Origin: Candidatus Limnocylindrales bacterium
Lineage (GTDB): Bacteria > Chloroflexota > Limnocylindria > Limnocylindrales > CSP1-4
Direction: 5' to 3'
DNA: 38,398 nt
NCBI GenBank assembly: GCA_036391495.1
Contig: DASVZT010000063.1
Span: forward strand, 1-38,398
Shown here: positions 17,902 to 35,702 of the stretch, piece by piece
How positions within the stretch are numbered: position 1 is the first letter of the stretch
How the letters are laid out: the number at the start of each line of letters is the position of its first letter
Notes under the pieces: generated by a model
What the model was told of the DNA's origin: nothing
Seen by the model: only the letters and a program-made list of their open reading frames with translations
Database searches by the model: none
Program-made: the position numbers and the translations under genes

Positions 17902-19170
17902 TCACGGGGCGAGCGCCCCAAGAGGCACCACGTTGACGCCGTCCGGGCGCGTGTACCCATAGCCCCACCCCGTGATCACGTTGAGGGACTGGGCGGAGCC
18001 CTGGCGGCTCCCAACCATCCTGGCCGCGAGCGCGCGCAGAGATGCTGCGCCCTCTTCGACCTCGGACGGGCCGAGCTTCATCTCGAAGGCCGCCCATCGG
18101 CCATCGGGACATTCGACGATGGCGTCGGCCTCGATGCGGGGTTCCCGGTAGTGCATCACGTGGGCGCCCATCGCCTGGGCGTAGACGCGGAGATCGCGGA
18201 TGACCAGCGATTCGAACAACAGGCCGAGTGTGTCGACCTCGAACACCAGGCGGTCAGGATCGGCGCCCAGGGCGGCGACCGCGAGCGAGGGATCGACGAG
18301 GTGACGCTTCGGGGAGGTGCGAGCCCGGGCGTTCGCGCGCAGCGTGGGGGCCCAAGCCGGCAGATCCTCGAGCACGTAGATCCGCGTTAGGGCGTCAAGA
18401 TACGACTTCACGGTCTCTCGGTCGATGGGGTCGTCCCCGGCGCGGATGTCTTTGGCGATCGTCTGCGACTGGATGGGAGTGGCGACGTGGCGCGCCAGGG
18501 ACCGGAGCGTGCGGAGGACGTTTTCGACGTCGTGACGCGGGCCGTCGAGGCGACGGAGGTCCACGCGTGCGGTCTCACGCAGGTAGCCGCCGAGGATCGT
18601 CAGCGCCTCGTTGACGGTGCGGCCTCGCAGCGCGGGCCAGCCGCCGACTGCCACGAGCTCGGCGATGTCGCGTATGTCGAGGCCTGGGTCGCCCGCCCGG
18701 ATAGGGCCGCCGCGCAGCAGGGCATCGAGGCTGATGTCGCCACTGCTGTGGCCCATCTCCGCAAGTGTCATCGGGCGCATCATGAGGCGCAGGATCCGCA
18801 GCGCCCCACTGTGGCGGGTGTGGTCCTCGCGCGCCTCGGTGGACCCCGTGAGGATGAATGATCCCGGCCTGCCGCCGGAGACGTCGATCGCGCGGCGGAC
18901 CTGGTTCCAGACCTGCGGAACCAGCTGCCACTCGTCGATGAGCCGAGGTCGGTCGCCCTGGAGGAGAAGCGAGGCATCGAGAAGGCCGGCCTCCCGAGCG
19001 GCATCGTCGACATCGAGGAGAACCCGGCTCGCGGATCGCCGCAGGGCGGTCTCCGTCTTGCCGCAGCCGCGTGCTCCTTCGATCAGGACCGCCCCCGAGG
19101 CGCGAAGGGCAGCCGCCAACTCGGCGTCCGCGATCCTCGGCAGGTAGTCGACCGGCTCCTCGTCCACCAC
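17902..19170 (-). CDS. AAA-family ATPase with a DUF4143-type C-terminal domain (AAA_14/DUF4143 family)
   Basis: Walker A-like GARGCGKT, Walker B-like RLIDEWQ, and a C-terminal ...LLFESLVIRDLRVYA...EADAIVE segment typical of DUF4143 proteins. GTG GTG at 19170/19167 is preceded by GGAG. Confidence 0.75.
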   Translation of the reverse strand: MVDEEPVDYLPRIADAELAAALRASGAVLIEGARGCGKTETALRRSASRVLLDVDDAAREAGLLDASLLLQGDRPRLIDEWQLVPQVWNQVRRAIDVSGGRPGSFILTGSTEAREDHTRHSGALRILRLMMRPMTLAEMGHSSGDISLDALLRGGPIRAGDPGLDIRDIAELVAVGGWPALRGRTVNEALTILGGYLRETARVDLRRLDGPRHDVENVLRTLRSLARHVATPIQSQTIAKDIRAGDDPIDRETVKSYLDALTRIYVLEDLPAWAPTLRANARARTSPKRHLVDPSLAVAALGADPDRLVFEVDTLGLLFESLVIRDLRVYAQAMGAHVMHYREPRIEADAIVECPDGRWAAFEMKLGPSEVEEGAASLRALAARMVGSRQGSAQSLNVITGWGYGYTRPDGVNVVPLGALAP

Positions 19171-19184
19171 ATTGCTCCGGTATC

Positions 19185-19276
19185 CCGCACTTCGTACGAG
19201 CGGTGGACCGCAGTTTGCACGCGCTCGACACCGCACTTTGTACGTGTTTTACACCGCACTTTGCACGACGATGGCA
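19185..19276. repeat. Four direct 23-bp repeats with a conserved 14-bp core CCGCA(C/G)TT(T/C)G(T/C)ACG
   Basis: Cores at 19185, 19208, 19231 and 19254, an exact 23-bp period with variable 9-bp spacers. Locally AT-richer. They begin 15 bp upstream of the ATPase start codon. Confidence 0.85.
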
Positions 19277-19327: not shown

Positions 19328-21811
19328 TCAGCGAACGACGACCACCGTGGCCTGGCCGCTGACTGGCTGGCTGTCGAGCTGCCCGCTCCCCGCGACGCCC
19401 CAGCCGAGGATCTCGAGTCGACTCCCCTGCCCGTCCTGTCCGGGCGGGGTCGCCCAGGCGAGGCGCCCTTCGTCCAGCGAGATGCCGCCGAGCGCGGGCT
19501 CGTCCCGCAGGAGGCTCCTGTCGAGGTCGACGCGGCCCGTCGGGGAATCGACCGTCAGGAGGCTGAGGCGACCGAGCCGCGGGTCGATCGGGTCTGCGAC
19601 CCACACAGCCAGGTGGTCGCCGGTGGAACTCCACCGCACGTCCCAGTCGGCCGGCAGCGCCCCGAGGCCATTGGTCACCGTGATCCCCGGCAGGGGCTCG
19701 GGGGCGACGAGCAGCTCGAACGGCGTGGGACCGGGCGAGAGCGAGCCCGACCCCTCCGGCATGCTGCCGGGCGGCTGTGACGCCTCGGGGAGGCCACCGG
19801 CCTGGCCGGGCGTCGAGCCGGGCGCGCCGGGCGCGGCCGGCGAAGTCGCGGGTCCGAGAGGAGCCGGCGAGGTCATCTCGGGCACGCTCCCCGTGTCCGA
19901 GGGCCCAGGTGCGACGCTCCCATCCGATACCGAGGTCCCGTCGCTGAGCGCCGGCAACGACGGCAGCGGGGGCAGGAGGAAGGTCCCGTCAGAGCTCGAC
20001 ACGCCGGCGAATGCAGCCCACGGGGCGATGGCGAAGCCACCGTCGAGGGGGACCCACGCGAGCGTCGCCGGGTCGAGCGTGACGTGGCCGTCCCAGTAGA
20101 CGACCCAGCGCTCCGACGGGTCGACGATCGGCCTCCAGCCCGGAAGCGCCAGGTCGGCGCGGCCCCCGGAGGCGGGATCGAGGAGGAAGGAGACGGGCAT
20201 TGCCACGGGCCCGACGGGCGACGGGGCGGGCGACGCGATCCCGGTCGATCCGTCCATCGAGCCTCCCGGCCCGGGCTCCACGGAGGACGACACCGGGGTC
20301 GCCGTCGGCTCGGGCGCCTGGGATGGCCGGGGCGTGGGCAGAGGCCGGGGCGTGGCCCGGGGTGTGGGCGCCGGCGTCGTCGGACCCGCCGGCCCCGCCG
20401 GCCCCGTCGGACCCGTCGGCCCCGTCGGACCCGGAGTGCCTCCACCGGCGCTCGGCGAGCCCGACTCCGGGACGGTCGTCCCATCGCTGGCGCCCACCGC
20501 GGTGCCGCCCGTCGACTCCACCTCGGCGCGGCTGCCGAGGATGAGATCGCCGAGCCACGAGGCGAAGACGGATCGATGATCGCTCGTGATCGGGCGCGCC
20601 TGTGCGTCGCCGACCCGCCAGGCCCAGATATCGGTCCCGCTCGTGCCATCCGCGGCTCGGGCGGTGAAGGCGAACCAGGCCCCATCGGGCGAGTAGGCCA
20701 TCGTCTCGCCGACGACGACGATACCGGTGGCGATCGCCAGCGCGCTGCCGTCCGTCGCCGACCCTGTCGAGGCCGACGGCTCGGAGGCGAAGCCCGACCC
20801 TGACGCGAGGGGCGATCCCGATGCGACGGCCGATCCCGATGCGAGGGGCGGCTCGACGTCCGTCGCCGACGGCGTCGGGGTCGTTGCCGCGCTCGGCGTT
20901 CGTGACGGCCTCCCTGCAGGTGGAACCGTCGAGACCGGCGAGGGCCAGGCGGACGGCGGGGAGACCATGGCGTCGCCGGGTTCGCCCGTCCCGCTCGGGC
21001 CGGGCGTCGACGGTGGACTCGCGATCGCGATGACGGTCGGGCTCGAGGACGACGCGGCGGGCGAGGACGTCGGGGCGCTCACGGGCGTCGGAAGCCGGAC
21101 CATGTAGATGGTCCCACCGACCGACGTCGTTGCCGCGTCGAGGACGGCCAGCTGCGCGCCGCCGGGCGAGCGGAGCACGGCACGCGGAGCTGCGGACAGT
21201 CGCAAGCGCTGCCGCGACGCGCCGTCGACCGGCGCGCAACCCTCGGCGCCGGCCGGGCAGACGTCGGCGACCGCGACGACATTCAGCGCGTACGTTCCGT
21301 CGTCCTGTGGCGTGAACCACGCGACGTTCGCGGCCTCGACCGGCACCGGCGAGGGGACGGCCGCGGCGGATGGGAGGGGCGTCGTCACGGTGGGTGCGAC
21401 CGGCGCGCCGGTGGAGAGGAGCGTCGAGCCGACGACGACCGCGACGACCGCGGCGACGGCCAGGACCCCGTACGACGCGAGAGTGACCGGTCCGAGACGG
21501 GTGCCGGCGCGGCGCGAGCGGCGGGCGGCGGGCCGCCGTCGATCCTCCTCGTCGAGGGCCGCCGCCGTTCGCGCCCAGAGGTCGCGCGGCAGCGGCGGAG
21601 CGGCGGTCCGTCCGGCCCGGAGCGTCAGCGCGTCGCGCTCGTAGGCGGCGGCGATCGCCGCGCACTCGGCACAGCTCGCGAGGTGATCGTCCAGCCAGTC
21701 GGCATCGAGCGGCGCGAGCGCGTCAGAGAGGCGTTCGGCGGCCAGGCGGCGGGCGCGCTCGTGGTCGGTCGTGAAGCGGTGGCGGAGCCGGGCCCGGCGG
21801 AGGTGGCTCAT
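19328..21811 (-). CDS. Large anti-sigma factor: zf-HC2, one TM helix, Pro/Ser/Thr-rich linkers, and PD40/TolB-like beta-propeller-type extracytoplasmic regions
   Basis: HLASCAEC (H-x3-C-x2-C). TM segment VLAVAAVVAVVVGSTLL. YSPDGAWFAFTARAADGTSGTDIWAWRV resembles PD40 repeats. ATG 21811 overlaps the sigma-factor stop (ATGA). Confidence 0.7.
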   Translation of the reverse strand: MSHLRRARLRHRFTTDHERARRLAAERLSDALAPLDADWLDDHLASCAECAAIAAAYERDALTLRAGRTAAPPLPRDLWARTAAALDEEDRRRPAARRSRRAGTRLGPVTLASYGVLAVAAVVAVVVGSTLLSTGAPVAPTVTTPLPSAAAVPSPVPVEAANVAWFTPQDDGTYALNVVAVADVCPAGAEGCAPVDGASRQRLRLSAAPRAVLRSPGGAQLAVLDAATTSVGGTIYMVRLPTPVSAPTSSPAASSSSPTVIAIASPPSTPGPSGTGEPGDAMVSPPSAWPSPVSTVPPAGRPSRTPSAATTPTPSATDVEPPLASGSAVASGSPLASGSGFASEPSASTGSATDGSALAIATGIVVVGETMAYSPDGAWFAFTARAADGTSGTDIWAWRVGDAQARPITSDHRSVFASWLGDLILGSRAEVESTGGTAVGASDGTTVPESGSPSAGGGTPGPTGPTGPTGPAGPAGPTTPAPTPRATPRPLPTPRPSQAPEPTATPVSSSVEPGPGGSMDGSTGIASPAPSPVGPVAMPVSFLLDPASGGRADLALPGWRPIVDPSERWVVYWDGHVTLDPATLAWVPLDGGFAIAPWAAFAGVSSSDGTFLLPPLPSLPALSDGTSVSDGSVAPGPSDTGSVPEMTSPAPLGPATSPAAPGAPGSTPGQAGGLPEASQPPGSMPEGSGSLSPGPTPFELLVAPEPLPGITVTNGLGALPADWDVRWSSTGDHLAVWVADPIDPRLGRLSLLTVDSPTGRVDLDRSLLRDEPALGGISLDEGRLAWATPPGQDGQGSRLEILGWGVAGSGQLDSQPVSGQATVVVVR
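20379..20433. repeat. 9-bp tandem repeat encoding (GPT/GPA)n in the anti-sigma linker
   Basis: ggccccgtc/ggacccgtc units read directly. They encode GPTGPTGPTGPAGPAGPT. Confidence 0.8.
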
Positions 21812-22383
21812 CGGGAGCGGTCCCGGGCCGATTCGGCCGCCCGTTCCTCGGCGAGCGCCTGCCGCAGGCTCTCGCGTGCCCGCGTCAGGAGCGCCCGGGC
21901 GGCGACATGGCTGACGCCCAGTGCCGAGGCGAGCTCGAGGCCCGTCAGCTCGTGGAGCTCGGCCAGCAGCAGCGCTGCGCGCTGGCGCTCGGGGATGCGG
22001 AGGAGGGCGCGCTCGAGGTCGGCCGAGAGGTGCAGGTCCATCACCGTCCGCTCGGCGGAGACCGCCGAGCCGCGGGACTCGCCGGTCCAGGGCAGGAAGC
22101 GGATGATCCGCCGCCGGCGGATCTCGTCGAGCGCGATCCGGTGGGCGATCTGGTAGAGCCAGGCACGGGCGTGGCCGCGGTCCTCGAGCGAGTCGTACGC
22201 CCGGTACGCCTTCACGAACGTGTCCTGCGTCATGTCCGCAGCCAGCTCCGGTTCGCGCATCATCCGGAAGAGGTAGGCGTGGATCTCGGGGCTGTGGAGC
22301 GCATAGAGCCGCTCGATCGCGAGGCGCGCGTCCTCGTCGCGGACGGCGGCGACGTCCCGGCCGTCGGCCCGCTCGTCGGTCAT
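21808..22383 (-). CDS. ECF-family RNA polymerase sigma factor
   Basis: Region 2 (DMTQDTFVKAYRAY...AWLYQIAHRIALDEIRRR) and region 4 (IPERQRAALLLAELHELTGLELASALGVSHVAARALLTRAR). ATG at 22383 is preferred over the listed 22476. Confidence 0.85.
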   Translation of the reverse strand: MTDERADGRDVAAVRDEDARLAIERLYALHSPEIHAYLFRMMREPELAADMTQDTFVKAYRAYDSLEDRGHARAWLYQIAHRIALDEIRRRRIIRFLPWTGESRGSAVSAERTVMDLHLSADLERALLRIPERQRAALLLAELHELTGLELASALGVSHVAARALLTRARESLRQALAEERAAESARDRSR

Positions 22384-22561
22384 GCGATCGATGACGGGAC
22401 GCACCAGCGGGGCCAACGGCGGCACTGCGCCGGCCCGACCGTGGACCGGGATCGCTGACAGCTGGCCGAAGGGCATCCGGACTCCGTGACCTGACGGGAC
22501 GCAGGTGGATGGATCGTCCCCCGAGATGGAGGGACGGCGGGCGCTGTCCTCATGTGACGCG

Positions 22562-27427: not shown

Positions 27428-28237
27428 TCAGCGGGCCACCGTCGTCAGGCCGGGATCGCCCTCCCGCGCGGGCTGACCGTCGCGCATCGCCGAGGCACGC
27501 AAGCGGGCCGAGACGCGGGCGGCCGAGGCGACGATCTCCGCCTCGATGACCTCCTCGGCGCCCGCCGCCGGGAAGCGGTACGTCGGCCCGTGGACGTGCA
27601 CGGCCGCCACCATCTCGCCGTGGGCGTCGGCGACCGGCGCCGCGATCGAGTTGATGCCCTCGGCGTACTCTCCGATCCCCCACGCGAAGCCGTCCCGGGT
27701 GGCGGCGGCGACACGCTCCCGGAGGACCGCGGCGGTCGTGACCGTGCGCGAGGTGAACCGCTCGAGCGGCCGCTCGAGATAGCGCGCGACGGCCGCATCG
27801 GGGAGCGACGCGAGCAGGACGATCCCCGACGGCACCGCGTGGAGCGGCGCCCGCGTCCCCGTCCAGTCGCGGACCCTGACCGGGTTCGGCGTCTCGACCT
27901 GGTCGACGTAGTGGACGCTCGTCCCGTCCAGGATCGACAGCCCCGTGGCCTCGCCGCAGCGTCGGGCGAGGTCGACGAGCTCCGGGTGGGCCAGCGCGAC
28001 GATGTTGCGCGTCGGCAGGACCGAGGCCGCGAGCGTGGCCAGCCGGGCGCCGATGCGGTAGTCCGTGCCGGCGGCGATCTGCTCGACCGCCCCCTCGCCC
28101 GCGAGCGTCGCGAGCAGGCGCGCGACCGTGCTCTTCGGCAGCCCGACGCGATCGGCGATCTCCGTCACGCCGAGCGGACCCTCACCGAGAGCCGAAAGCA
28201 CGGCGAAGGCTCGCTCGATGCTCTGGACTCTCGACAT
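27428..28237 (-). CDS. IclR-family transcriptional regulator
   Basis: N-terminal wHTH (SIERAFAVLSAL...LGVTEIADRVGLPKSTVARLL) and a C-terminal IclR effector domain. ATG 28237 has GGAGG 5 nt upstream. Confidence 0.85.
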   Translation of the reverse strand: MSRVQSIERAFAVLSALGEGPLGVTEIADRVGLPKSTVARLLATLAGEGAVEQIAAGTDYRIGARLATLAASVLPTRNIVALAHPELVDLARRCGEATGLSILDGTSVHYVDQVETPNPVRVRDWTGTRAPLHAVPSGIVLLASLPDAAVARYLERPLERFTSRTVTTAAVLRERVAAATRDGFAWGIGEYAEGINSIAAPVADAHGEMVAAVHVHGPTYRFPAAGAEEVIEAEIVASAARVSARLRASAMRDGQPAREGDPGLTTVAR

Positions 28238-28261
28238 CGCCACCTCCGATCCGGTAATGTG

Positions 28262-28351: not shown

Positions 28352-29050
28352 ATGGCAGACGAGACGAACGAGCTCGACCTGAACGCCCTCTCCGACGACG
28401 AGCTCGTCGAGCAGATGCACAACGACCTCTACGACGGCATGGCGGCCGAGGTCGCCGAGGGCACCAACATCCTGCTCGCGCGCGGCTGGACGGCAAGCCA
28501 GGTCCTCGAGGACGCGCTCGTGGCGGGCATGAAGATCGTCGGCATCGACTTCCGCGACGGGATCCTCTTCGTCCCCGAGGTCCTGCTCGCGGCCAACGCC
28601 ATGAAGGCGGGCATGGCGATCCTGCGGCCGCTGCTCGCGGAGACCGGCGCCGAGCCGATCGGGAAGGTCGTCATCGGCACCGTCAAGGGCGACATCCACG
28701 ACATCGGCAAGAACCTCGTCGGCATGATGCTCGAGGGGGCCGGGTTCGAGGTCATCGACCTCGGCATCAACACCGACGCCGACAAGTTCATCGCCGCGCT
28801 GGAGGCCCACAAGCCCGACATCCTCGGCATGTCCGCGCTGCTCACCACGACCATGCCGTACATGAAGGTCGTCATCGAGACGCTGAAGGAACGCGGCATG
28901 CGCGACGACTTCATCGTCCTCGTCGGCGGCGCGCCGCTCAACGAGGAGTTCGGCCGGGCCGTCGGGGCCGACGCGTACTGCCGTGATGCCGGCGTGGCCG
29001 CCGAGACGGCCCGGGCGCTCATCGAGAGGCGGCGTGCCAGCGTCGCCTAG
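28352..29050 (+). CDS. Cobalamin-binding corrinoid protein (methyltransferase cognate, MtgC/MttC-like)
   Basis: ATG at 28352. N-terminal helical cap domain. B12-binding DxHxxG (GDIHDIGKN), SALLTTT and VLVGGAP motifs. Confidence 0.85.
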   Translation: MADETNELDLNALSDDELVEQMHNDLYDGMAAEVAEGTNILLARGWTASQVLEDALVAGMKIVGIDFRDGILFVPEVLLAANAMKAGMAILRPLLAETGAEPIGKVVIGTVKGDIHDIGKNLVGMMLEGAGFEVIDLGINTDADKFIAALEAHKPDILGMSALLTTTMPYMKVVIETLKERGMRDDFIVLVGGAPLNEEFGRAVGADAYCRDAGVAAETARALIERRRASVA

Positions 29051-29750
29051 CGTCGCCGCGATGGCCGCGGACGCTGCCGCTCTTCCGAACGCTCCCCGGC
29101 CGACCGGCGAGCGCGTCCTCGTCGTGGCCTGCGGCGCCCTCGCGCGAGAGATCCTCGGCGTCCTCGAGCGGGCCGGTCTCGACCACGTCGACGTCGCCTG
29201 CCTCTCGGCGCAGCTCCACATGCGTCCGGGACGCATCGCCGACGCCGTGGCGGCCAAGATCCGCGAGCGCCGCGACGGCTATGACCGCGTCTTCGTCGCG
29301 TATGCCGACTGCGGGACCGGCGGCGCCCTCGACCGCGTCCTGGCCGAGCCGGACCTGGCCGGCATCGAGCGCCTTCCCGGCGCCCATTGCTACGAGCTGT
29401 ACGCGGGCGCGAAGGCGTTCGAGCAGCTGGCCGACGAGGAGCCGGGCACCTTCTACCTGACCGACTTCCTGACCCGCTCATTCGACGCTCTCGTCATCAA
29501 GGGCCTGGGTCTCGACCGCCACCCGGAGCTCCTCGAGCTCTACTTCGGGAACTACCGGCGGCTGGTGTACCTGGCGCAGTCGGACGATCCGGCGCTGGTC
29601 GACGAGGCCAGGGCGGCCGCCGAGCGGCTCGGGCTCGAGTTCGAGCTGCGGCGCACGGGCTACGGCGAGCTCGAGCCGTTCCTCCTGGCCGGCACGAGCG
29701 GCGGCACGAGCGCCGCCACGACCACGGGCTTCCAGGCGGGAGCGGCCTGA
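29034..29750 (+). CDS. DUF1638-family protein
   Basis: RVLVVACGALAREI, VFVAYADCGTGGALD, GAHCYELY and FYLTDFL match my recollection of DUF1638. GTG 29034 has GAGAGG upstream; ATG 29061 is an alternative start. The stop shares 1 nt with the next start. Confidence 0.65.
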   Translation: MPASPSVAAMAADAAALPNAPRPTGERVLVVACGALAREILGVLERAGLDHVDVACLSAQLHMRPGRIADAVAAKIRERRDGYDRVFVAYADCGTGGALDRVLAEPDLAGIERLPGAHCYELYAGAKAFEQLADEEPGTFYLTDFLTRSFDALVIKGLGLDRHPELLELYFGNYRRLVYLAQSDDPALVDEARAAAERLGLEFELRRTGYGELEPFLLAGTSGGTSAATTTGFQAGAA

Positions 29751-30097
29751 TGCCCCCGGTCCTGACCGTCATCTACTGGCGCGACATCCCCGCCCAGGTC
29801 GTCGCGAAGGACGGCCGCCGCTCGAGCAAGATCGTCCTCCATCCGCGCTTCCAGGTCGCCATCGACCGGGCCGCCGTCAAGGCCGGCCGGCGCGAGATGG
29901 ACGCCTACATCGCCGAGTGGCGCAAAGAGCAGCGCCCGTGCGACGACGATCTGGAGACAGTCGCGCACGGCGAGGCCGACCGCCTCGAGGCCCAGTACAC
30001 GAGGGACGTCCTCGCCCGTCTCGTCGAGAGCGGTGGAGTGGACGAGCTGGCCCAGGATCCCACCTCATCCCCCGCCATCGAGGAGCCTGCACCGTGA
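29750..30097 (+). CDS. Small 'virulence factor'-annotated family protein (Virulence_fact-like)
   Basis: MPPVLTVIYWRDIPAQVVAKDGRR...AIDRAAVKAGRREMDAYIAEWRK matches the YWRDIPAQV-type family seen next to corrinoid methyltransferases (from memory; needs HMM confirmation). Confidence 0.55.
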   Translation: MPPVLTVIYWRDIPAQVVAKDGRRSSKIVLHPRFQVAIDRAAVKAGRREMDAYIAEWRKEQRPCDDDLETVAHGEADRLEAQYTRDVLARLVESGGVDELAQDPTSSPAIEEPAP

Positions 30098-31011
30098 CCG
30101 CGCCGCGCACCGTCATCGCCTCGCCCCGGAAGGAAGTCGTCATCGGCGGCGGGAACCGCTTCGTCGTCATCGGCGAGCGGATCAATCCGACCGGCCGCAA
30201 GCTCCTCGCCGAGGAGATGAAGAACGGCGACTTCAGCCGCGTCGAGACCGACGCGGTCGCCCAGGTCGCCGCCGGGGCCCACATGCTCGACGTCAACGCC
30301 GGCATCCCGCTCGCCGACGAGCCGGGCATCCTGGCCAGGACCGTCCAGCTCGTCCAGTCGCTCGTCGACGTCCCGCTCTCGATCGACAGCTCGATCGTCG
30401 ACGCCCTGGAGGCGGGACTCGCCGTCTACAAGGGCAAGGCGCTCGTCAACTCGGTCACCGGCGAGGAGGAGCGCCTCGAGCGCGTCCTGCCGCTCGTCCG
30501 GAAGTACGGCGCGGCCGTCGTGGCGATCAGCAACGACGACACCGGGATCTCGACCGATCCGGACGTCCGCTTCGCCGTCGCGAAGAAGATCGTCGAGCGG
30601 GCGGCCGACCACGGCATCCCGCGCGAGGACATCGTCGTCGACCCGCTCGTCATGCCGATCGGAGCGATGGCCACGGCCGGGCAGCAGGTCTTCCGCCTGC
30701 TCCGGCGCCTCCACGACGAGCTCCACGTCAACACGACCTGCGGCGCGTCGAACGTCAGCTTCGGCCTGCCGAACCGCGAAGGGATCAACGCGTCGTTCCT
30801 GGCGATGGCGATCTCGAACGGCCTCACGAGCGCGATCACGAACCCGCTGCTCGAGGAGGTGAAGCACGCCATCATGGCCGCCGACGTGCTGATGGGTCAC
30901 GACCAGGACGCCGCGACGTGGATCCGCGCTTTCCGACAGGCGCCCGTGGACGAGTCGCGCGGCCGGCGCGTCAACCGGCGCACCCTCGCCGGCGCCGGGG
31001 CGCAGGGCTAG
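30094..31011 (+). CDS. Methyltetrahydrofolate:corrinoid methyltransferase (pterin-binding, MtgA/AcsE/MetH-domain-like)
   Basis: GTG 30094 overlaps the upstream TGA (GTGA), with GAGGAG upstream. VIGERINPTGRK, MLDVN, SIDSS, VNSV and CGASNVSFGLP are pterin-binding TIM-barrel motifs. Confidence 0.85.
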   Translation: MTAPRTVIASPRKEVVIGGGNRFVVIGERINPTGRKLLAEEMKNGDFSRVETDAVAQVAAGAHMLDVNAGIPLADEPGILARTVQLVQSLVDVPLSIDSSIVDALEAGLAVYKGKALVNSVTGEEERLERVLPLVRKYGAAVVAISNDDTGISTDPDVRFAVAKKIVERAADHGIPREDIVVDPLVMPIGAMATAGQQVFRLLRRLHDELHVNTTCGASNVSFGLPNREGINASFLAMAISNGLTSAITNPLLEEVKHAIMAADVLMGHDQDAATWIRAFRQAPVDESRGRRVNRRTLAGAGAQG

Positions 31012-31033: not shown

Positions 31034-33229
31034 GTGGCGCCGACGGGCGAGCCGCTCGTCATCTTCACGCCGTCGGGACGGCGCGCCCGCGTCCCCCTCG
31101 GCACGAACCTGCTCGACACCGCGCGCGGGCTGGGAGTCGACATCGACTCGGTCTGCGGCGGCCGGGGCATCTGCGGTCGCTGCCAGGTCCGCCAGAGCAT
31201 CGGGACGTTCGCCAAGCACGGCATCACGTCGAGCGCCGACCACCTGGCCGAGCCGGGCGAGGCCGAGGAGCGCTACCGCGCCGAGAAGGGCCTCGCGCCC
31301 GATCGCCGCCTGTCGTGCCTGACCAGCGTCTGCGGCGACGTCGTCATCGACGTCCCGCCCGAGAGCCAGGTCCACCGCCAGGTCGTCCGCAAGGGCATCG
31401 ACGTGCGGACGTTCAAGATCGATCCGGTCGTGAGTCTCCATTACGTCGAGGTCGAGCGGCCGACGCTCGCCTCGCCGAGCGGCGACCTCGCCCGGCTCCT
31501 CGCGGCGCTCGAGCGGGAGTGGGAGGTCCACGAGGCCGTCGCGGACCTCGCGGTCGTCCGCGCCCTCCAGCCCGCGCTCGAGAAGGGCGGCTACGCGGTC
31601 ACCGTCGCGCTGCATGAGCGCAGGGAGGTCATCGCGATCTGGCCGGGCTTCCGCGACAAGGCGTACGGCGTCGCGATCGACGTCGGATCGACGACGATCG
31701 CGGGCCACCTCGCCGACCTCGCCGACGGCCGCGTCCTCGCCTCGAACGGCGTCATGAACCCGCAGATCCGCTTCGGCGAGGACCTCATGAGCCGCGTCTC
31801 GTACGCGATGATGCATCCGGACGGAGCGGCCGAGATGACCCGGGCGGTTCGCGGCGCGCTCGACGGGCTCGTCTCGGGTCTCGCGGCGGCGGCCGGCATC
31901 CCGATCGACGCCGTCCTCGCGCTGACGATCGTCGGGAACCCGATCATGCATCACCTCGTGCTCGGCATCGACCCGATCCCGCTCGGCTCGGCACCGTTCG
32001 CCCTGGCCACCGATCGAGCCGTCGCGACGACCGCGCACGAGCTCGAGATCAGCGCCAACGCCGGCGCCCGCGTCTACGTCCTGCCCTGCATCGCCGGACA
32101 CGTCGGGGCCGACACGGCCGGCGTCATCCTCGCCGAGGAGCCGCAGCGCGCGACGCGGATGGAGCTGGTCGTCGACGTCGGGACGAACGCCGAGATCGTC
32201 CTCGGCAACCGCGACGGCCTGCTCGCGGCCTCCTCGCCGACGGGCCCCGCCTTCGAGGGGGCGCAGATCTCGGCGGGCCAGCGCGCCGCCCCGGGAGCGA
32301 TCGAGCGCGTCCGGATCGACCGCCAGACGCTCGAGCCGCGCTTCCGCGTCATCGGCGTCGACGCCTGGTCGGACGACCCGGCGTTCGCCCGGCGTGTCCG
32401 GAAGACAGGCGTCACGGGTATCTGCGGCTCGGGCATCGTCGAGGTCATCGCCGAGCTCTACCTGGCCGGCGTCATCACGCCCGACGGCATCGTCGACGGC
32501 TCGCTCGCGGAGCGGACGTGCCGCATCGTTCCCGACGGCAGGACGTTCAGCTACGTCCTCTACGACCCGGCCGAGCACGCGACCCCGAGCTCGAACGGCC
32601 GGGCGGCGGGCCCGGATGGCCAGGAGCCGGGCCCCGACGTGCACGCGTCGCCGGAGCCGACGGCGCGCATCCTCGTCACCCAGAACGACGTGCGCGCCGT
32701 CCAGCTGGCCAAGGCCGCCCTCTACGCCGGGACGCGGCTGCTCATGGACCACGCCGGCATCGACCACGTCGACGACGTCCGCCTCGCCGGCGCGTTCGGC
32801 AGCCAGATCGACCCGTTCCACGCGCTCGTGCTCGGACTCGTCCCCGACTGCGACCTCGATCACGTCAAGCCGGCCGGCAACGCGGCCGGGACGGGTGCCC
32901 TCATCGCCCTGCTGTCGAAGAAGGCACGGAACGAGATCGAGGCCGTCGTCCGGTCGGTCGAGAAGGTCGAGACGGCCGTCGAGCCCCGCTTCCAGGAGCA
33001 TTTCGTGGATGCGATGGCCTTCCCCCATCGCATCGCGCCCTATCCGAACCTCGAGCGCATCGTCACGCTGCCACGGGCCGCGCGCCCGGGCGAGGGACAG
33101 CCGGGCCGCGCGCGCCGGACCAACCGCAGGAACATGGCCGCCGGCGAGGCGGCGCGGGCCGCCCAGGGCGCGGCGCAGGCAGCCGTCGAGGCGACAGAGA
33201 CCGCCGTCGCGGCGAAGGAGGATCGATGA
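31034..33229 (+). CDS. RamA-like reductive activator of corrinoid enzymes (2Fe-2S ferredoxin domain plus ASKHA ATPase domain)
   Basis: N-terminal CGGRGICGRCQV...LSC ferredoxin motif. Central GVAIDVGSTTIAGHL and LVVDVGTNAEIVLG ASKHA phosphate motifs. GTG 31034 with GGAGAG upstream. Confidence 0.8.
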   Translation: MAPTGEPLVIFTPSGRRARVPLGTNLLDTARGLGVDIDSVCGGRGICGRCQVRQSIGTFAKHGITSSADHLAEPGEAEERYRAEKGLAPDRRLSCLTSVCGDVVIDVPPESQVHRQVVRKGIDVRTFKIDPVVSLHYVEVERPTLASPSGDLARLLAALEREWEVHEAVADLAVVRALQPALEKGGYAVTVALHERREVIAIWPGFRDKAYGVAIDVGSTTIAGHLADLADGRVLASNGVMNPQIRFGEDLMSRVSYAMMHPDGAAEMTRAVRGALDGLVSGLAAAAGIPIDAVLALTIVGNPIMHHLVLGIDPIPLGSAPFALATDRAVATTAHELEISANAGARVYVLPCIAGHVGADTAGVILAEEPQRATRMELVVDVGTNAEIVLGNRDGLLAASSPTGPAFEGAQISAGQRAAPGAIERVRIDRQTLEPRFRVIGVDAWSDDPAFARRVRKTGVTGICGSGIVEVIAELYLAGVITPDGIVDGSLAERTCRIVPDGRTFSYVLYDPAEHATPSSNGRAAGPDGQEPGPDVHASPEPTARILVTQNDVRAVQLAKAALYAGTRLLMDHAGIDHVDDVRLAGAFGSQIDPFHALVLGLVPDCDLDHVKPAGNAAGTGALIALLSKKARNEIEAVVRSVEKVETAVEPRFQEHFVDAMAFPHRIAPYPNLERIVTLPRAARPGEGQPGRARRTNRRNMAAGEAARAAQGAAQAAVEATETAVAAKEDR

Positions 33230-34767
33230 CCGAGGAGACCGTCCGCCGACGTCCGGGAGGCCGCGAGAGCCGGCGAGCGGCGCGACTCGCGTCCCACGTC
33301 GCACGCCAGCCGTTCCTGACGCGCAAGCTCGCGCCGTTCGAGATCCTCGACGAGGAGGGACTGTCGCTCCTCGAGGAGAACGCCGAGACGATCCTCGAGG
33401 AGGTCGGCGTCGAGTTCCGCGGCGACCCGGCCGCCCTCGACCTGCTGCGCAACGCGGGCGGCGACGTCGACGGCGAGCTCGTCCGCTTCCCGCGCGGCAT
33501 GTGTCGCCGGATCGTCCAGGCGACGGCGCCGCGCCAGTACACGCAGTACGCACGGAACCCCGCCAACAACGTCGAGATCGGCGGGATGAACACGGTCTTC
33601 GCGCCGAACTACGGCTCGCCCTTCGTGCGCGACCTCGACGGCGGCCGCCGTTACGGCACGATCGAGGACTTCCGCAACTTCGTGAAGCTCGTCTACATGA
33701 GCCCCCACCTCCACCACAGCGGGGGCACGATCTGCGAGCCCGTCGACGTGCCCGTCAACAAGCGGCACCTCGACATGATCTACGCCCACCTGCGCTACAC
33801 CGACAAGCCGTTCATGGGCTCGGTGACGGCCGCCGAGCGCGCCTACGACACCGTCGAGATGGCGAAGATCGTCTTCGGCGCCGACTTCGTCGACCAGAAC
33901 GCGGTCATCACGAGCCTCATCAACGCCGCGTCGCCCCTGGTGTGGGACTCCTCGATGCTCGGCGCCGCCCGCGCCTACGCGGAGAACAACCAGGCGACGC
34001 TCATCACGCCGTTCATCCTCGCCGGCGCGATGGCGCCGGTGACGTCCGCCGCCGTCTGCGCCCAGACCCTCGCCGAGGCGCTGGCAGGCATGGCGTTCGT
34101 CCAGCTCGTCCGCCCGGGCGCGCCGGTCGTCTTCGGCTCCTTCGCCAGCTCGATGTCGATGCAGACGGGCGCCCCGACGTTCGGCACGCCCGAGCCCGCC
34201 CTCGTCCTCTACGTCATGGCCGCGCTCGCCCGCCGTCTCGGCGTGCCGTTCCGCTCTGGCGGCGCGCTCTGCGCCAGCAAGCTTCCCGATGCGCAGGCGG
34301 CCTACGAGTCGGCGGCGACGATGCAGCCGACGATCCTCGCCGGCGTCAACTTCGTCCTCCACACCGCGGGCTGGCTCGAAGGGGGCCTCACGATGAGCTA
34401 CGAGAAGCTCATCCTCGACGCCGACCAGGCCGGGATGCTGGCTGTCTTCGCCCAGGGCATGGACCTCTCGGAGAACAGCCAGGGCCTCGCCGCGTTCCGC
34501 GAGGGCACGCCCGGCGTGCACTTCCTCGGCAGCGCTCATACCCTGGCCAACTTCGAGACGGCGTTCTATCGCAGCGAGACGGCCAACTACGACTCCTTCG
34601 AGCAGTGGTCCGAGGAGGGCGCCAAGGACGCCGCGACGCGGGCGAACGCGGTCTGGAAGCGGATGCTGGCCGAGTACGAGCAGCCGCCGATGGACCCCGG
34701 GATCGACGAGGCGCTGCTCGAGTTCATCGCCCGGCGCAAGGCGTCCATGCCGGACGCCCTGTCGTAG
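33226..34767 (+). CDS. MttB-superfamily methyltransferase, non-pyrrolysine type (quaternary amine / glycine betaine:corrinoid methyltransferase-like)
   Basis: ATG 33226 overlaps the upstream stop (ATGA). A 513-codon uninterrupted ORF with no in-frame TAG. LSLLEENAETILEEVGVEF, ...PLVWD..., LITPFILAGAMAPVT and FVLHTAGWLEGGL are typical of the trimethylamine methyltransferase (MttB) fold family. Confidence 0.8.
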   Translation: MTEETVRRRPGGRESRRAARLASHVARQPFLTRKLAPFEILDEEGLSLLEENAETILEEVGVEFRGDPAALDLLRNAGGDVDGELVRFPRGMCRRIVQATAPRQYTQYARNPANNVEIGGMNTVFAPNYGSPFVRDLDGGRRYGTIEDFRNFVKLVYMSPHLHHSGGTICEPVDVPVNKRHLDMIYAHLRYTDKPFMGSVTAAERAYDTVEMAKIVFGADFVDQNAVITSLINAASPLVWDSSMLGAARAYAENNQATLITPFILAGAMAPVTSAAVCAQTLAEALAGMAFVQLVRPGAPVVFGSFASSMSMQTGAPTFGTPEPALVLYVMAALARRLGVPFRSGGALCASKLPDAQAAYESAATMQPTILAGVNFVLHTAGWLEGGLTMSYEKLILDADQAGMLAVFAQGMDLSENSQGLAAFREGTPGVHFLGSAHTLANFETAFYRSETANYDSFEQWSEEGAKDAATRANAVWKRMLAEYEQPPMDPGIDEALLEFIARRKASMPDALS

Positions 34768-34829: not shown

Positions 34830-35702
34830 ATGCCTCGTCGACTGGCCGACCTCCCGAGCGACCAGCGCGCCGCGATCGTCGCGCTCCTCCGCGCGCCGAC
34901 GTTCGAGCTCATCCCGCTCAAGAACGCCCACGAGCAGGCGGCCTTCCTGCCGGACGGCTCGCTCGTCTCGGTGACGGCGTCGCCGGCGAAGGGAATCGAG
35001 GCGACCGTCGAGCTTGCCGAGCAGCTGGCGTCCGTCGGTCACCGCCCCGTCGTCCACCTCTCGGCGCGGATGATCCGCGACCGCGCCCACCTCCGGGCGC
35101 TGCTCGATCGCCTCGCGGCCGGGGGCCTCGACCGCGCCTTCGTCGTCGGCGGCGACGCGGACGTGCCAGGCGAGTTCCGCGACGCCCTGTCGCTGCTGCG
35201 CGCGATGGCCGAGATGGGGCACGCGCTGCGGGAGATCGGCATCGGCTGCTACCCCGACGGCCACCCCGACATCCCCGACGACGCACTCGTGGGCGCCCTC
35301 CACGCCAAGGCGCCGTACGCAAGCTACATGACGACGCAGATGTGCTTCGACCCGCGCAAGATCGGCGGGTTCATCGCGGCGCGCCGATCCGAGGGCATCG
35401 CCCTCCCGGTCCATCTCGGTCTGCCAGGCGTCGCCGAGGTTGCCAAACTGGCGCTCATCTCGGCACGGATCGGGGTCAAGGATTCGAAGCGGTTCATGCG
35501 CAAGAACGTGCGCCTCGTCGGCCAGCTCGTCCGGCCGGGCGGCTACCGCCCCGATGGGCTGCTCGAGTCGCTCGGGGATGTCCTCGCCGACCCGACGGCG
35601 AGGGTCGACGATCTCCACGTGTACACGTTCAACCAGGTCGAGACGACCGAGGAGTGGCGGCGCGGCTACCTGCGCGCGCTGCGCGAGGAGGACCAGGCAT
35701 GA
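34830..35702 (+). CDS. metF: Methylenetetrahydrofolate reductase family protein
   Basis: FELIPLKN, VSVTASP, the HLSAR region, VVGGD, IGCYPDGHP and the MTTQMCFD region resemble the MTHFR (PF02219-type) TIM barrel. Confidence 0.75.
   Translation: MPRRLADLPSDQRAAIVALLRAPTFELIPLKNAHEQAAFLPDGSLVSVTASPAKGIEATVELAEQLASVGHRPVVHLSARMIRDRAHLRALLDRLAAGGLDRAFVVGGDADVPGEFRDALSLLRAMAEMGHALREIGIGCYPDGHPDIPDDALVGALHAKAPYASYMTTQMCFDPRKIGGFIAARRSEGIALPVHLGLPGVAEVAKLALISARIGVKDSKRFMRKNVRLVGQLVRPGGYRPDGLLESLGDVLADPTARVDDLHVYTFNQVETTEEWRRGYLRALREEDQA

Follow-up and report, generated by a model that had tools for sequence, protein, structure and literature searches.

The window analysed here, a stretch of 38,398 nucleotides from a probable Chloroflexota MAG, contains an operon that, judged by its predicted genes, is a corrinoid methyl-transfer system of the MtgBCD, aerobic type, with the gene order corrinoid protein (CoP), DUF1638, VirF (the Pfam family 'Virulence_fact'), methyl-tetrahydrofolate (methyl-THF) methyltransferase (MT2), RamA-like activase, MttB and MetF (Table 1). 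A preliminary description had placed two ORFs, of the DUF1638 and VirF families, between the CoP and MT2 genes, and both are indeed there, each scoring above its Pfam cut-off. The start/stop overlaps around them are likewise as described. DUF1638 can start at GTG 29034, preceded by GAGAGG 4 nt upstream and overlapping the CoP gene (whose TAG stop is at 29048–29050) by 17 nt; with the alternative start, ATG 29061, the two genes are 10 nt apart. DUF1638 and VirF meet at TGATG (29748–29752), VirF and MT2 at GTGA (30094–30097), and the RamA-like and MttB genes overlap similarly at ATGA (33226–33229). DUF1638 and VirF are members of the methyl-transfer operon, and the overlaps fit coupled expression; that the pair is co-expressed stoichiometrically with its neighbours, as was also proposed, is what such overlaps would suggest. 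Two coordinates were corrected, the start of the CoP gene being fixed at ATG 28352 and that of MttB at ATG 33226.

Table 1. Genes of the methyl-transfer operon and of its upstream flank, with positions in the window.
Feature	Position	Strand	Assignment and remarks
Membrane permease, 611 aa	25470..27305	+	Divergent from the IclR gene; weak AA_permease_2 match (E 4.7e-07, 29.5 bits vs cut-off 27)
IclR-family transcription regulator	27428..28243	-	HTH_IclR and IclR_C matches
Corrinoid (B12-binding) protein, MtgC type, 232 aa	28352..29050	+	B12-binding_2 and B12-binding; DxHxxG motif is GDIHDIG
DUF1638 protein	29034/29061..29750	+	PF07796; start GTG 29034 or ATG 29061; 229 aa from ATG 29061
VirF ('Virulence_fact'), 115 aa	29750..30097	+	PF13769
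MT2, methyl-THF:corrinoid methyltransferase, MtgD-like	30094..31011	+	Pterin_bind; NCBIfam PRK07535, 366.5 bits vs cut-off 259
RamA/RACo-like ATP-dependent reductive activase, N-terminal 2Fe-2S ferredoxin domain	31034..33229	+	Fer2, RACo_linker, Raco_middle, RACo_C_ter
MttB-superfamily substrate methyltransferase (MT1)	33226..34767	+	PF06253, E 2e-227
MetF-like methylene-THF reductase	34830..35702	+	PF02219, E 4.4e-08, 33.2 bits vs cut-off 24

The neighbouring genes define the setting. For the CoP, the top NCBIfam match was the glycine-betaine corrinoid protein MtgC, under its cut-off; the D, H and G of its DxHxxG motif are invariant in 41 sequences, and it is 68–91% identical to DUF1638-adjoining corrinoid genes of other phyla. 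The activase matches the NCBIfam AcsV and RamA models below their cut-offs, and MttB has no in-frame stop and is therefore a non-pyrrolysine member. Pfam matches of the operon ORFs revealed no homocysteine methyltransferase (MtgE) gene. Upstream, the permease scores far under the cut-off of the NCBIfam amino-acid transporter model and has a counterpart of 68% identity in the equivalent place of another locus (L064), and it is probably the importer of the methylated substrate; a relative of the IclR regulator occurs in 21 of 80 related loci, chiefly in Chloroflexota and Actinomycetota. The MAG (73% complete) has a single copy each of the DUF1638 and VirF families. The window also encodes a CtaA-CtaB (COX15+UbiA) fusion, the sole respiration marker examined in this 73% complete genome, which would fit an oxygen-respiring host. 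Two soil metatranscriptome libraries contained short contigs 97–98% identical to part of the DUF1638 gene (29165–29315) and to the CoP/DUF1638 junction (28949–29096), a weak hint of transcription, as such libraries can hold DNA and their cover is patchy.

The same set of parts (an MttB-family MT1, an MtgC-type CoP, a pterin-binding MT2, a MetF2-like protein, a 2Fe-2S RamA-like protein and DUF1638) makes up the aerobic MtgBCD(E) system of Ruegeria pomeroyi and Phaeobacter inhibens, a glycine-betaine methyltransferase and split methionine synthase (Price 2018; Mausz 2025). The CoP here is 68–75% identical to the DUF1638-adjoining CoPs of Rhodobacteraceae loci, and VirF is common to this locus and the genera of that system. 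Unlike in Ruegeria and Phaeobacter, however, all parts lie in one overlapping operon, which lacks MtgE and is flanked by genes for an IclR regulator and a permease of unusual kind.

DUF1638 matched PF07796 over profile positions 1–160 of 161 (E 2e-29, 103 bits vs cut-off 27). The preliminary description had pointed to three conserved-looking cysteine motifs, and these turned out to be the signature of the family: in an alignment of 16 divergent DUF1638 proteins, with 14–24% identity to the protein of this locus plus one at 56%, no column is invariant other than those of Cys24, Cys84 and Cys110 (counted from ATG 29061), and these three are also invariant across 33 close homologs. The residue preceding Cys110 is Asp, His or Asn. 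In the secondary structure of the AF2 model (pLDDT 88.4), which has a two-lobed alpha/beta fold, the first two cysteines are predicted to follow strands 1 and 3, respectively, and the third to lie where the second lobe begins, and the conservation of all three would be accounted for if they were ligands of a metal centre. Some longer homologs, of 300–370 aa, were considered as fusions and rejected, as their C-terminal extensions are of low complexity, have no Pfam match and are probably over-long gene calls in GC-rich DNA.

In Foldseek against the PDB, the best E-value for the DUF1638 model was 7.6e-4 with a TM-score of 0.26, the best TM-scores were 0.26–0.32, and ornithine and aspartate carbamoyltransferases occupied the top rows; in VIA-align wide the highest Z was 8.6, a value common for models without a true match. 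The matches are generic two-lobed alpha/beta proteins at background level. No Fe–S protein was present among the Foldseek and VIA-align fold matches, which still leaves room for an Fe–S cluster. The profile search of PDB sequences gave a best E of 0.2, NCBIfam held no model matching DUF1638 or VirF, and a relationship of DUF1638 to the B12-binding domain was rejected (hhalign probability 0.2). One reading of these data would make DUF1638 a thiol-dependent enzyme of Asp/Glu-racemase or carbamoyltransferase ('ATC-like') architecture, whose target would be a small molecule or the corrinoid's upper ligand, as in dealkylation or in the reduction of Co(III) forms ahead of RamA. Asp/Glu racemases and carbamoyltransferases belong to one shared fold class with cysteines at the cleft. 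Besides the carbamoyltransferases heading the Foldseek rows, 7 of the top 27 VIA-align rows were members of the Asp/Glu racemase superfamily (aspartate racemases, maleate isomerase, arylmalonate decarboxylase; Z 7.4–8.4). Such Z values are nonetheless at a commonly seen level, TM-scores stay at 0.2–0.3, there are no conserved substrate-binding residues besides the cysteines, and the use of the domain as a sensor input, described below, would be unusual for an enzyme, so that we regard this reading as quite improbable.

VirF is a clear member of PF13769 (profile positions 2–81 of 81, E 1.6e-21, 76.8 bits vs cut-off 25), a family matched by 835 representative clusters at E ≤ 0.001. Its conserved residues are W10, P14, L30, F34, D39, A42 and Y53, with no conserved cysteine among them. 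Its AF2 model (pLDDT 90.1) yielded nothing at E ≤ 0.001 in Foldseek, a best Z of 3.9 (to a GIY-YIG domain) in VIA-align wide and no usable match in the ESM Atlas, and the profile search of PDB sequences gave a best E of 0.94; as modelled, VirF resembles no solved fold among the structures searched. Nor did the literature searched contain any work in print on VirF or papers using PF13769.

The linkage of the two families to corrinoid genes was examined in 80 loci, retrieved by their DUF1638 genes from Chloroflexota, Actinomycetota and Alpha-, Beta- and Gammaproteobacteria; 75 of them had room for neighbour counts. A CoP gene lies directly upstream of DUF1638 in 61 of these 75 and VirF directly downstream in 56, and within 10 kb are found MT2 (57/80), RamA (52/80) and, in only 33/80, MttB. 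Among 151 Alphaproteobacteria the distributions nearly coincide: VirF is present in 30, DUF1638 in 35, RACo in 36 and MttB in 34; the 30 with VirF include 29 with DUF1638, 29 with RACo and 30 with MttB, VirF, DUF1638 and RACo occur jointly in 28, and DUF1638 adjoins VirF in 21 of 29. In 201 genomes of the host phylum, against a background of 66/201, RACo is present in all 19 genomes with VirF and in 30 of the 33 with DUF1638; the two genes adjoin one another in 10 of 10 genomes that have both, and VirF lies within 3 kb of RACo in 7 of 9 that have VirF but lack DUF1638. Related genomes are not independent, and fewer independent events underlie these counts than the numbers imply. Co-occurrence with corrinoid methyltransferase genes elsewhere, which the preliminary description had named as the test on which its reading could fail, is nevertheless clearly conserved, in loci and in genome counts alike.

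Arrangements other than that of the operon described here are also found. L086 is of a RACo–DUF1638–VirF type, and L085, an annotated case lacking DUF1638, has the order VirF, RACo, homocysteine methyltransferase and URO-D. RamA directly follows VirF in two alphaproteobacterial loci (L032 and L035), and in Gammaproteobacteria VirF is followed by MetV-like, MetF and MT2 genes. VirF does not adjoin CoP and DUF1638 in Rhodobacteraceae, where, in 5/5 genomes checked, it is the first gene of a separate operon and is followed there by MetF-like and MT2 genes, RACo being present in all five. DUF1638 is also found outside corrinoid contexts: at 9 of 14 further Chloroflexota loci no corrinoid gene was found within 4.5 kb among the ORFs scanned, the neighbours including alpha/beta hydrolases, a glycosidase and an ABC transporter, and RACo is missing from three genomes whose match is of the DUF1638-GGDEF type.

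These distributions bear on the possibility that the pair is a passenger, a regulator or a virulence factor unconnected with methyl transfer. The name 'virulence factor', used by Pfam and NCBI, points that way, as does a PF13769 match in the Bacillus subtilis control genome, where DUF1638, RACo and MttB have none, and nothing else does. Against it stand the near-coincident distribution of the pair with RACo and MttB, a gene order kept across five phyla or classes, the existence of fusions, the nature of the hosts, which are free-living soil and marine bacteria, and a literature in which, as far as searched, PF13769 does not figure. We consider it most improbable, and the database label of VirF to be misleading.

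Whole-domain fusions connect the same proteins. DUF1638 is fused to VirF in three proteins (P0280 of Ilumatobacter coccineus, P0275 and P0232), to CoP in P0278 and to RACo in P0283, and VirF occurs with Fer2 and RACo_linker in P0201; in a VirF+Pterin_bind form (P0210) the VirF part is partial. Fusions with CobN, FGGY, a dehydratase, an acetyltransferase, or partial B12-binding or RACo domains were set aside, as the domains are cut at the junction and such forms are likely frameshift or assembly artefacts. DUF1638 moreover heads signalling proteins, namely a histidine kinase (DUF1638+PAS+HisKA+HATPase) and a diguanylate cyclase (DUF1638+GAF+GGDEF) encoded downstream of a CoP and an MtaA-like gene. 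In one such sensor cassette, L084 (CoP, MtaA-like (URO-D), DUF1638 and signalling protein), the same DUF1638 domain with its three cysteines adjoins CoP as in our operon but, unlike there, is fused to a signalling protein or encoded just before one, and VirF, MttB and a pterin-binding gene are lacking.

Sensor use and fusions could also be read as signs that DUF1638 is not an electron carrier but a chaperone or state reader of the CoP, its cleft binding the corrinoid or the B12 domain (for loading, cap displacement or recognition of an inactive form) and its cysteines having a ligand (thiol or cobalt) or redox-switch function. No neighbour but CoP is shared by every corrinoid-linked context, whether the 61 of 75 loci, the L086 type or the L084 sensor fusions, the two are fused in P0278, and input-domain use fits a binding domain; the fold, too, is a two-lobed cleft like that of periplasmic-binding and LacI-type ligand binders (Z 7.6–8.4 over 137–173 aligned residues). 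Those structural matches are, however, at background level and, beyond the three cysteines, there are no conserved residues to line a corrin-sized pocket, so that we think this role unlikely.

Published work bears directly on DUF1638. In Phaeobacter inhibens, DUF1638 mutants are methionine auxotrophs and cofit with split MetH, which shows the ortholog to be genetically required; the authors explicitly made no proposal for what DUF1638 does, and noted that systems with DUF1638 mostly lack the AdoMet-binding activation domain of MetH (Price 2018, PMC5764234). In Mausz 2025 (PMC12478193), DUF1638 is labelled B12 reactivation and induced on N-osmolytes, the R. pomeroyi protein SPO2162 (DUF1638) being listed at +3.95 on glycine betaine in Dataset S1. 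The same dataset gives SPO1861, an uncharacterised protein of 98 aa encoded directly before MetF2 and MtgD, seven peptides on N-osmolytes and none on succinate. The VirF orthologs found for Ruegeria and Phaeobacter, none of them assigned to R. pomeroyi by name, are all of 98 aa and carry the NCBI label 'virulence factor', and those of Ruegeria are placed like SPO1861, which by size and position, rather than by sequence, is the probable VirF ortholog; the searched passages, sections and supplements of Mausz 2025 (PMC12478193) do not mention VirF. A link of DUF1638 to B12 reactivation is hence already in print (Price 2018; Mausz 2025). The earlier statement that neither family has an assigned role accordingly holds for VirF and not for DUF1638, and the preliminary interpretation as a whole is partly supported.

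For VirF, its neighbours raise the question of which enzymes it would serve. It could be an accessory of the folate side; MetF or MT2, and not the activase, would then have it as a small subunit or need it for assembly. MT2 lies directly after VirF here and at many other loci, MetF and MT2 are its steadiest downstream neighbours, including the MetV-like, MetF and MT2 genes of Gammaproteobacteria and, in 5/5 Rhodobacteraceae, the MetF-like and MT2 genes that follow it apart from CoP and DUF1638, and SPO1861 is co-induced with MetF2 and MtgD in the dataset cited above (PMC12478193). The P0210 form would join VirF to a pterin-binding domain, with the reservation that its VirF part is partial. On the other hand, where DUF1638 is absent VirF directly precedes RACo, the L085 operon having no pterin-binding gene, RamA directly follows VirF in L032 and L035, and forms with VirF, Fer2 and RACo_linker exist. 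An exclusively folate-side role is a serious possibility, if one that we would not expect to hold.

On balance, we favour the view that DUF1638 and VirF are conserved accessory proteins of an aerobic-type, RamA-dependent corrinoid system (composed of an MttB-family MT1, an MtgC-type CoP, an MtgD-type methyl-THF MT2, a RamA/RACo-like activase and MetF), with DUF1638 as an Fe–S relay or gate and VirF as an adaptor. The two proteins would belong to the constant core that returns oxidised Co(II) to Co(I), and not to the variable, substrate-specific part. DUF1638 (~200 aa) may ligate a metal centre, most likely an Fe–S cluster, through its three cysteines in the cleft between the lobes and, acting on or beside the CoP, could serve the RamA step as redox relay or gate; kinases and c-di-GMP cyclases adjoining CoPs would then have taken over its domain as their input. 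VirF (~100 aa, with no cofactor signature) would be an adaptor linking the activase, as well as MT2 and MetF as the enzymes of methyl-THF, to DUF1638, and both would make physical contact with these partners. A bolder version, which we put forward tentatively and with some doubt, is a three-part corrinoid repair machine of RamA, DUF1638 and VirF, in which the Cys3 Fe–S or metal centre of DUF1638 would read or set the redox state of the CoP cobalt and VirF would be a docking subunit of new fold; DUF1638 might then represent a new class of sensor domain for the state of B12 bound to protein, given its place at the N-terminus of histidine kinases and diguanylate cyclases next to CoPs.

Such a system can be set beside known modes of reactivation. 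The activase gene of our operon belongs with the RACo/RamA/AcsV activators, whose distribution DUF1638 and VirF share and to which they are fused in some genomes, although unlike these activators neither has an ATPase or a ferredoxin domain. The described activators act as single proteins and are not known to have a subunit resembling DUF1638 or VirF. The MetH reactivation module, consisting of the AdoMet-binding activation domain with flavodoxin or methionine synthase reductase, likewise brings Co(II) cobalamin back to the active cycle, by reductive methylation with AdoMet, whereas RamA uses ATP-driven reduction. The proposed DUF1638/VirF system would do the same job as this module, to which it is not known to be related in sequence or fold.

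Corrinoid methyltransferases are prone to losing cobalt(I), and more quickly so in air. Aerobic bacteria of oceans and soils nevertheless run them at high flux, both to break down glycine betaine and to make methionine (Mausz 2025, PMC12478193). DUF1638, which is genetically implicated, and VirF would add two further conserved parts beyond the RamA-like ATPase to the means of keeping these enzymes active, and the probable ortholog of VirF is already, unnamed, among the induced R. pomeroyi proteins (PMC12478193). The three-cysteine signature, the sensor use and the fusions lend themselves to cheap and concrete experiments in organisms with genetics. Because both proteins accompany the B12-repair enzyme in many bacteria, they probably belong to its machinery as parts so far overlooked, and are probably not virulence genes.

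The plus strand of the window (G+C content 72%) carries a tightly packed methyl-transfer operon that runs from the corrinoid protein (CoP) gene to that of a MetF-like reductase, and the open reading frames, junctions and Pfam scores bear out the preliminary description of DUF1638 (PF07796) and a Virulence_fact protein (PF13769; hereafter VirF) as overlapping genes within it. DUF1638 and VirF meet at TGATG, VirF and the methyl-THF methyltransferase (MT2) at GTGA, and RamA and MttB at ATGA; the GTG start of DUF1638, preceded at 4 nt by GAGAGG, gives a 17-nt overlap with the corrinoid gene, and the alternative ATG start leaves a gap of 10 nt after that gene. Both proteins score above the Pfam gathering thresholds over the full profile length, and each occurs once in the window's genome, which is 73% complete. 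The closest relatives' records are Chloroflexota (Limnocylindria-like) MAGs, and DNA near-identical to the window is present in soil, rhizosphere and sludge metagenomes from several studies; the CtaA-CtaB haem a/o synthase fusion would point to an oxygen-respiring host, a prediction made from that gene.

Methyl-transfer operon and other features of the window
Feature	Position	Strand	Remarks
COX15/CtaA + UbiA/CtaB fusion, 674 aa	4612-6633	-	haem a synthase + haem o synthase
AAA_14 + DUF4143 ATPase	17905-19236	-	amid housekeeping genes
ORF, 827 aa	19331-21811		no Pfam match; comes after the ECF-type sigma factor gene
ECF-type sigma factor	21811-22476
Permease, 611 aa	25470-27305		upstream of operon
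IclR regulator	27428-28243	-	upstream of operon
Corrinoid protein (CoP)	28352-29050	+	B12-binding_2 + B12-binding; GDIHDIG motif
DUF1638	GTG 29034 or ATG 29061 to 29750	+	Pfam
VirF (Virulence_fact/PF13769), 115 aa	29750-30097	+	Pfam
Pterin-binding methyl-THF methyltransferase (MT2)	30094-31011	+
RamA/RACo-like activase	31034-33229	+	2Fe-2S domain; ASKHA match in two stretches; ~26-residue insert (32582-32659); Ala/Gly/Arg-rich C-terminal tail of ~60 residues
MttB-family methyltransferase	33226-34767	+
MetF-like reductase	34830-35702	+

Gene order around DUF1638 was compared by tblastn with the window's proteins, taking one genome per species and the best 80 of at least 592 confirmed loci (among at least 600 pattern matches); these span Chloroflexota, Actinomycetota and Alpha-, Beta- and Gammaproteobacteria and, being the closest DUF1638 relatives (52-67% identity), describe one subfamily. 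There is room for immediate neighbours in 75 of these best 80: CoP lies directly upstream of DUF1638 in 61/75 and VirF directly downstream in 56/75. Within 10 kb, MT2 was found in 57/80, RamA in 52/80 and MttB in only 33/80. In Gammaproteobacteria, a Cys-rich MetV-like gene and metF fill a 1.8-kb gap after VirF. The adjacencies and 10-kb counts therefore delineate a constant core of CoP, DUF1638, VirF, (MetV/MetF), MT2 and RamA, to which MttB genes are a variable attachment.

Across 151 sampled Alphaproteobacteria, the distributions of VirF (30 genomes), DUF1638 (35, one below cut-off), RACo_C_ter (36) and MttB (34) nearly coincide, although neither these nor the following genome counts can be read as statistics because related genomes are not independent. 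The 30 VirF-bearing genomes include 29 with DUF1638, 29 with RACo and 30 with MttB; VirF, DUF1638 and RACo occur all together in 28, and DUF1638 is followed immediately by VirF in 21/29. DUF1638 without VirF was seen in six genomes, including a contig-edge match, a fragment and a sub-threshold match. Rhodobacteraceae are apparent exceptions, having CoP and DUF1638 without a nearby VirF; in all five genomes checked, VirF lies elsewhere, heading a VirF, MetF-like, MT2 operon, and RACo is also present. Among 201 genomes of the window's phylum, 33 have DUF1638, 19 VirF and 66 RACo, the last accompanying VirF in 19/19 genomes and DUF1638 in 30/33, and wherever DUF1638 and VirF co-occur they are adjacent (10/10). 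VirF without DUF1638 occurs in nine genomes of this phylum, in seven of them less than 3 kb from a RACo gene; the single annotated case (locus L085) comprises VirF, RACo, a homocysteine S-methyltransferase and URO-D. The linkage of VirF, DUF1638 and RACo recurs in separate phyla, and the co-occurrence with corrinoid methyltransferase genes that the preliminary description had singled out for checking is found both in these distributions and in the position of CoP. The Bacillus subtilis control genome has a PF13769 match and none for DUF1638, RACo or MttB, so some VirF-family members live without the corrinoid system.

The predicted DUF1638 model (pLDDT 88.4) has two alpha/beta lobes and only background-level matches to solved structures (best Z 8.6, TM at most 0.32), namely carbamoyltransferases, Asp/Glu racemases, and periplasmic-binding and LacI proteins. 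In an alignment of 16 members (14-24% identity to the window's protein, one at 56%), invariance is confined to three columns, Cys24, Cys84 and Cys110 (numbered from ATG 29061), the same three that had been picked out earlier as conserved-looking; Asp, His or Asn precedes Cys110. These three cysteines suggest that DUF1638 holds a putative metal centre, most likely Fe-S; that they instead mark a thiol enzyme seems improbable. VirF is predicted as a small sheet-plus-helices domain (pLDDT 90.1) with conserved residues that include Trp, Arg, Asp and Tyr; no conserved Cys was found, and no PDB structure is similar to it (no Foldseek match at E <= 0.001, best Z 3.9).

DUF1638 also occurs in other settings. 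In small complete genomes of the window's phylum it forms the N-terminal part of a PAS histidine kinase, whose gene precedes that of a response regulator; in one of these, G057, the kinase has 604 aa (DUF1638 + PAS_3 + HisKA + HATPase_c; locus L083:1966-3777, minus strand) and the regulator is OmpR-type, and frames of 585-617 aa contain DUF1638 in four related genomes. A different lineage has DUF1638 at the head of a GAF-GGDEF cyclase, whose gene comes immediately after those of a corrinoid protein and an MtaA-like protein; the locus in genome G036 (L084:2086-7148, plus strand) reads corrinoid protein, URO-D (MtaA-like), DUF1638-GAF-GGDEF cyclase, ARMT1-like protein. Kinase and cyclase both keep the three invariant Cys. 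This use as an input domain suggests that DUF1638 reads or sets redox or cofactor state; that it is, as an alternative to a metal-centre protein, a chaperone or state reader we consider unlikely. DUF1638 adjoins RACo at two further loci (L096, L098), and at L102 it is preceded by an ARMT1-like gene, itself preceded by genes for NuoF-like and NuoG-like Fe-S proteins. Another operon (L094:587-3142, minus strand) consists of DUF1638, radical-SAM and pterin-binding methyltransferase genes; a radical-SAM gene also adjoins the CoP and DUF1638 genes of Phaeobacter inhibens (Price 2018, PMC5764234). At three loci (L099, L100, L106) DUF1638 directly follows an alpha/beta-hydrolase gene, with no corrinoid gene found within 4.5 kb among the ORFs scanned, and this looks like a separate subfamily. 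Given the kinase, the cyclase and these unrelated-looking contexts, the family is wider than the present operon.

Fused forms came from searches of representative and of longer proteins and were then re-scanned with Pfam, whole domains being required on both sides. DUF1638 is fused to VirF in P0280 (Ilumatobacter coccineus), P0275 (four members) and P0232, to CoP in P0278 and to Fer2 and RACo in P0283, and VirF is fused to Fer2 and RACo_linker in P0201. Many further fused forms, with domains cut at the junction, were set aside as probable frameshift artefacts. A 214-aa protein, P0129, has two tandem Virulence_fact domains.

According to Price 2018 (PMC5764234), the P. inhibens DUF1638 ortholog is cofit with a three-part methionine synthase, methionine rescues its mutants, and its distribution in Alphaproteobacteria matches that of a RamA-like protein; its authors state that they propose no specific function for DUF1638. 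Mausz 2025 (PMC12478193) names RamA and DUF1638 as cobalamin reactivation modules and reports induction of Ruegeria pomeroyi SPO2162 (DUF1638) on N-osmolytes; 'virulence factor' is absent from the text and supplements searched. Its Dataset S1 lists an uncharacterised 98-aa protein, SPO1861, directly before MetF2 (SPO1862) and MtgD (SPO1863); seven of its peptides were detected on carnitine, choline and betaine, compared with zero on succinate plus ammonium. SPO1861 is very probably VirF, judged on size and position, because the Ruegeria and Phaeobacter VirF orthologs are all 98 aa and stand at the same place before MetF-like and MT2. No mention of PF13769 was found in the literature searched, and the main text of a 2025 MtgBCD preprint does not mention RamA, virulence, hypothetical or unknown-function proteins. 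The earlier statement that neither family has an assigned role therefore stands for VirF, within that literature, and falls for DUF1638, whose involvement in reactivation is already published.

Taken together, the data show that DUF1638 and VirF belong to the conserved part of the RamA-dependent corrinoid system, where they are tied to CoP, the activase and the methyl-THF enzymes and not to a particular substrate methyltransferase. From their co-distribution with RamA and the P. inhibens phenotype, we infer that both serve corrinoid reactivation, in which VirF may be an adaptor, leaning to RamA or to MetF/MT2. The pair is a real, well-conserved feature whose mechanism is testable in existing model organisms.
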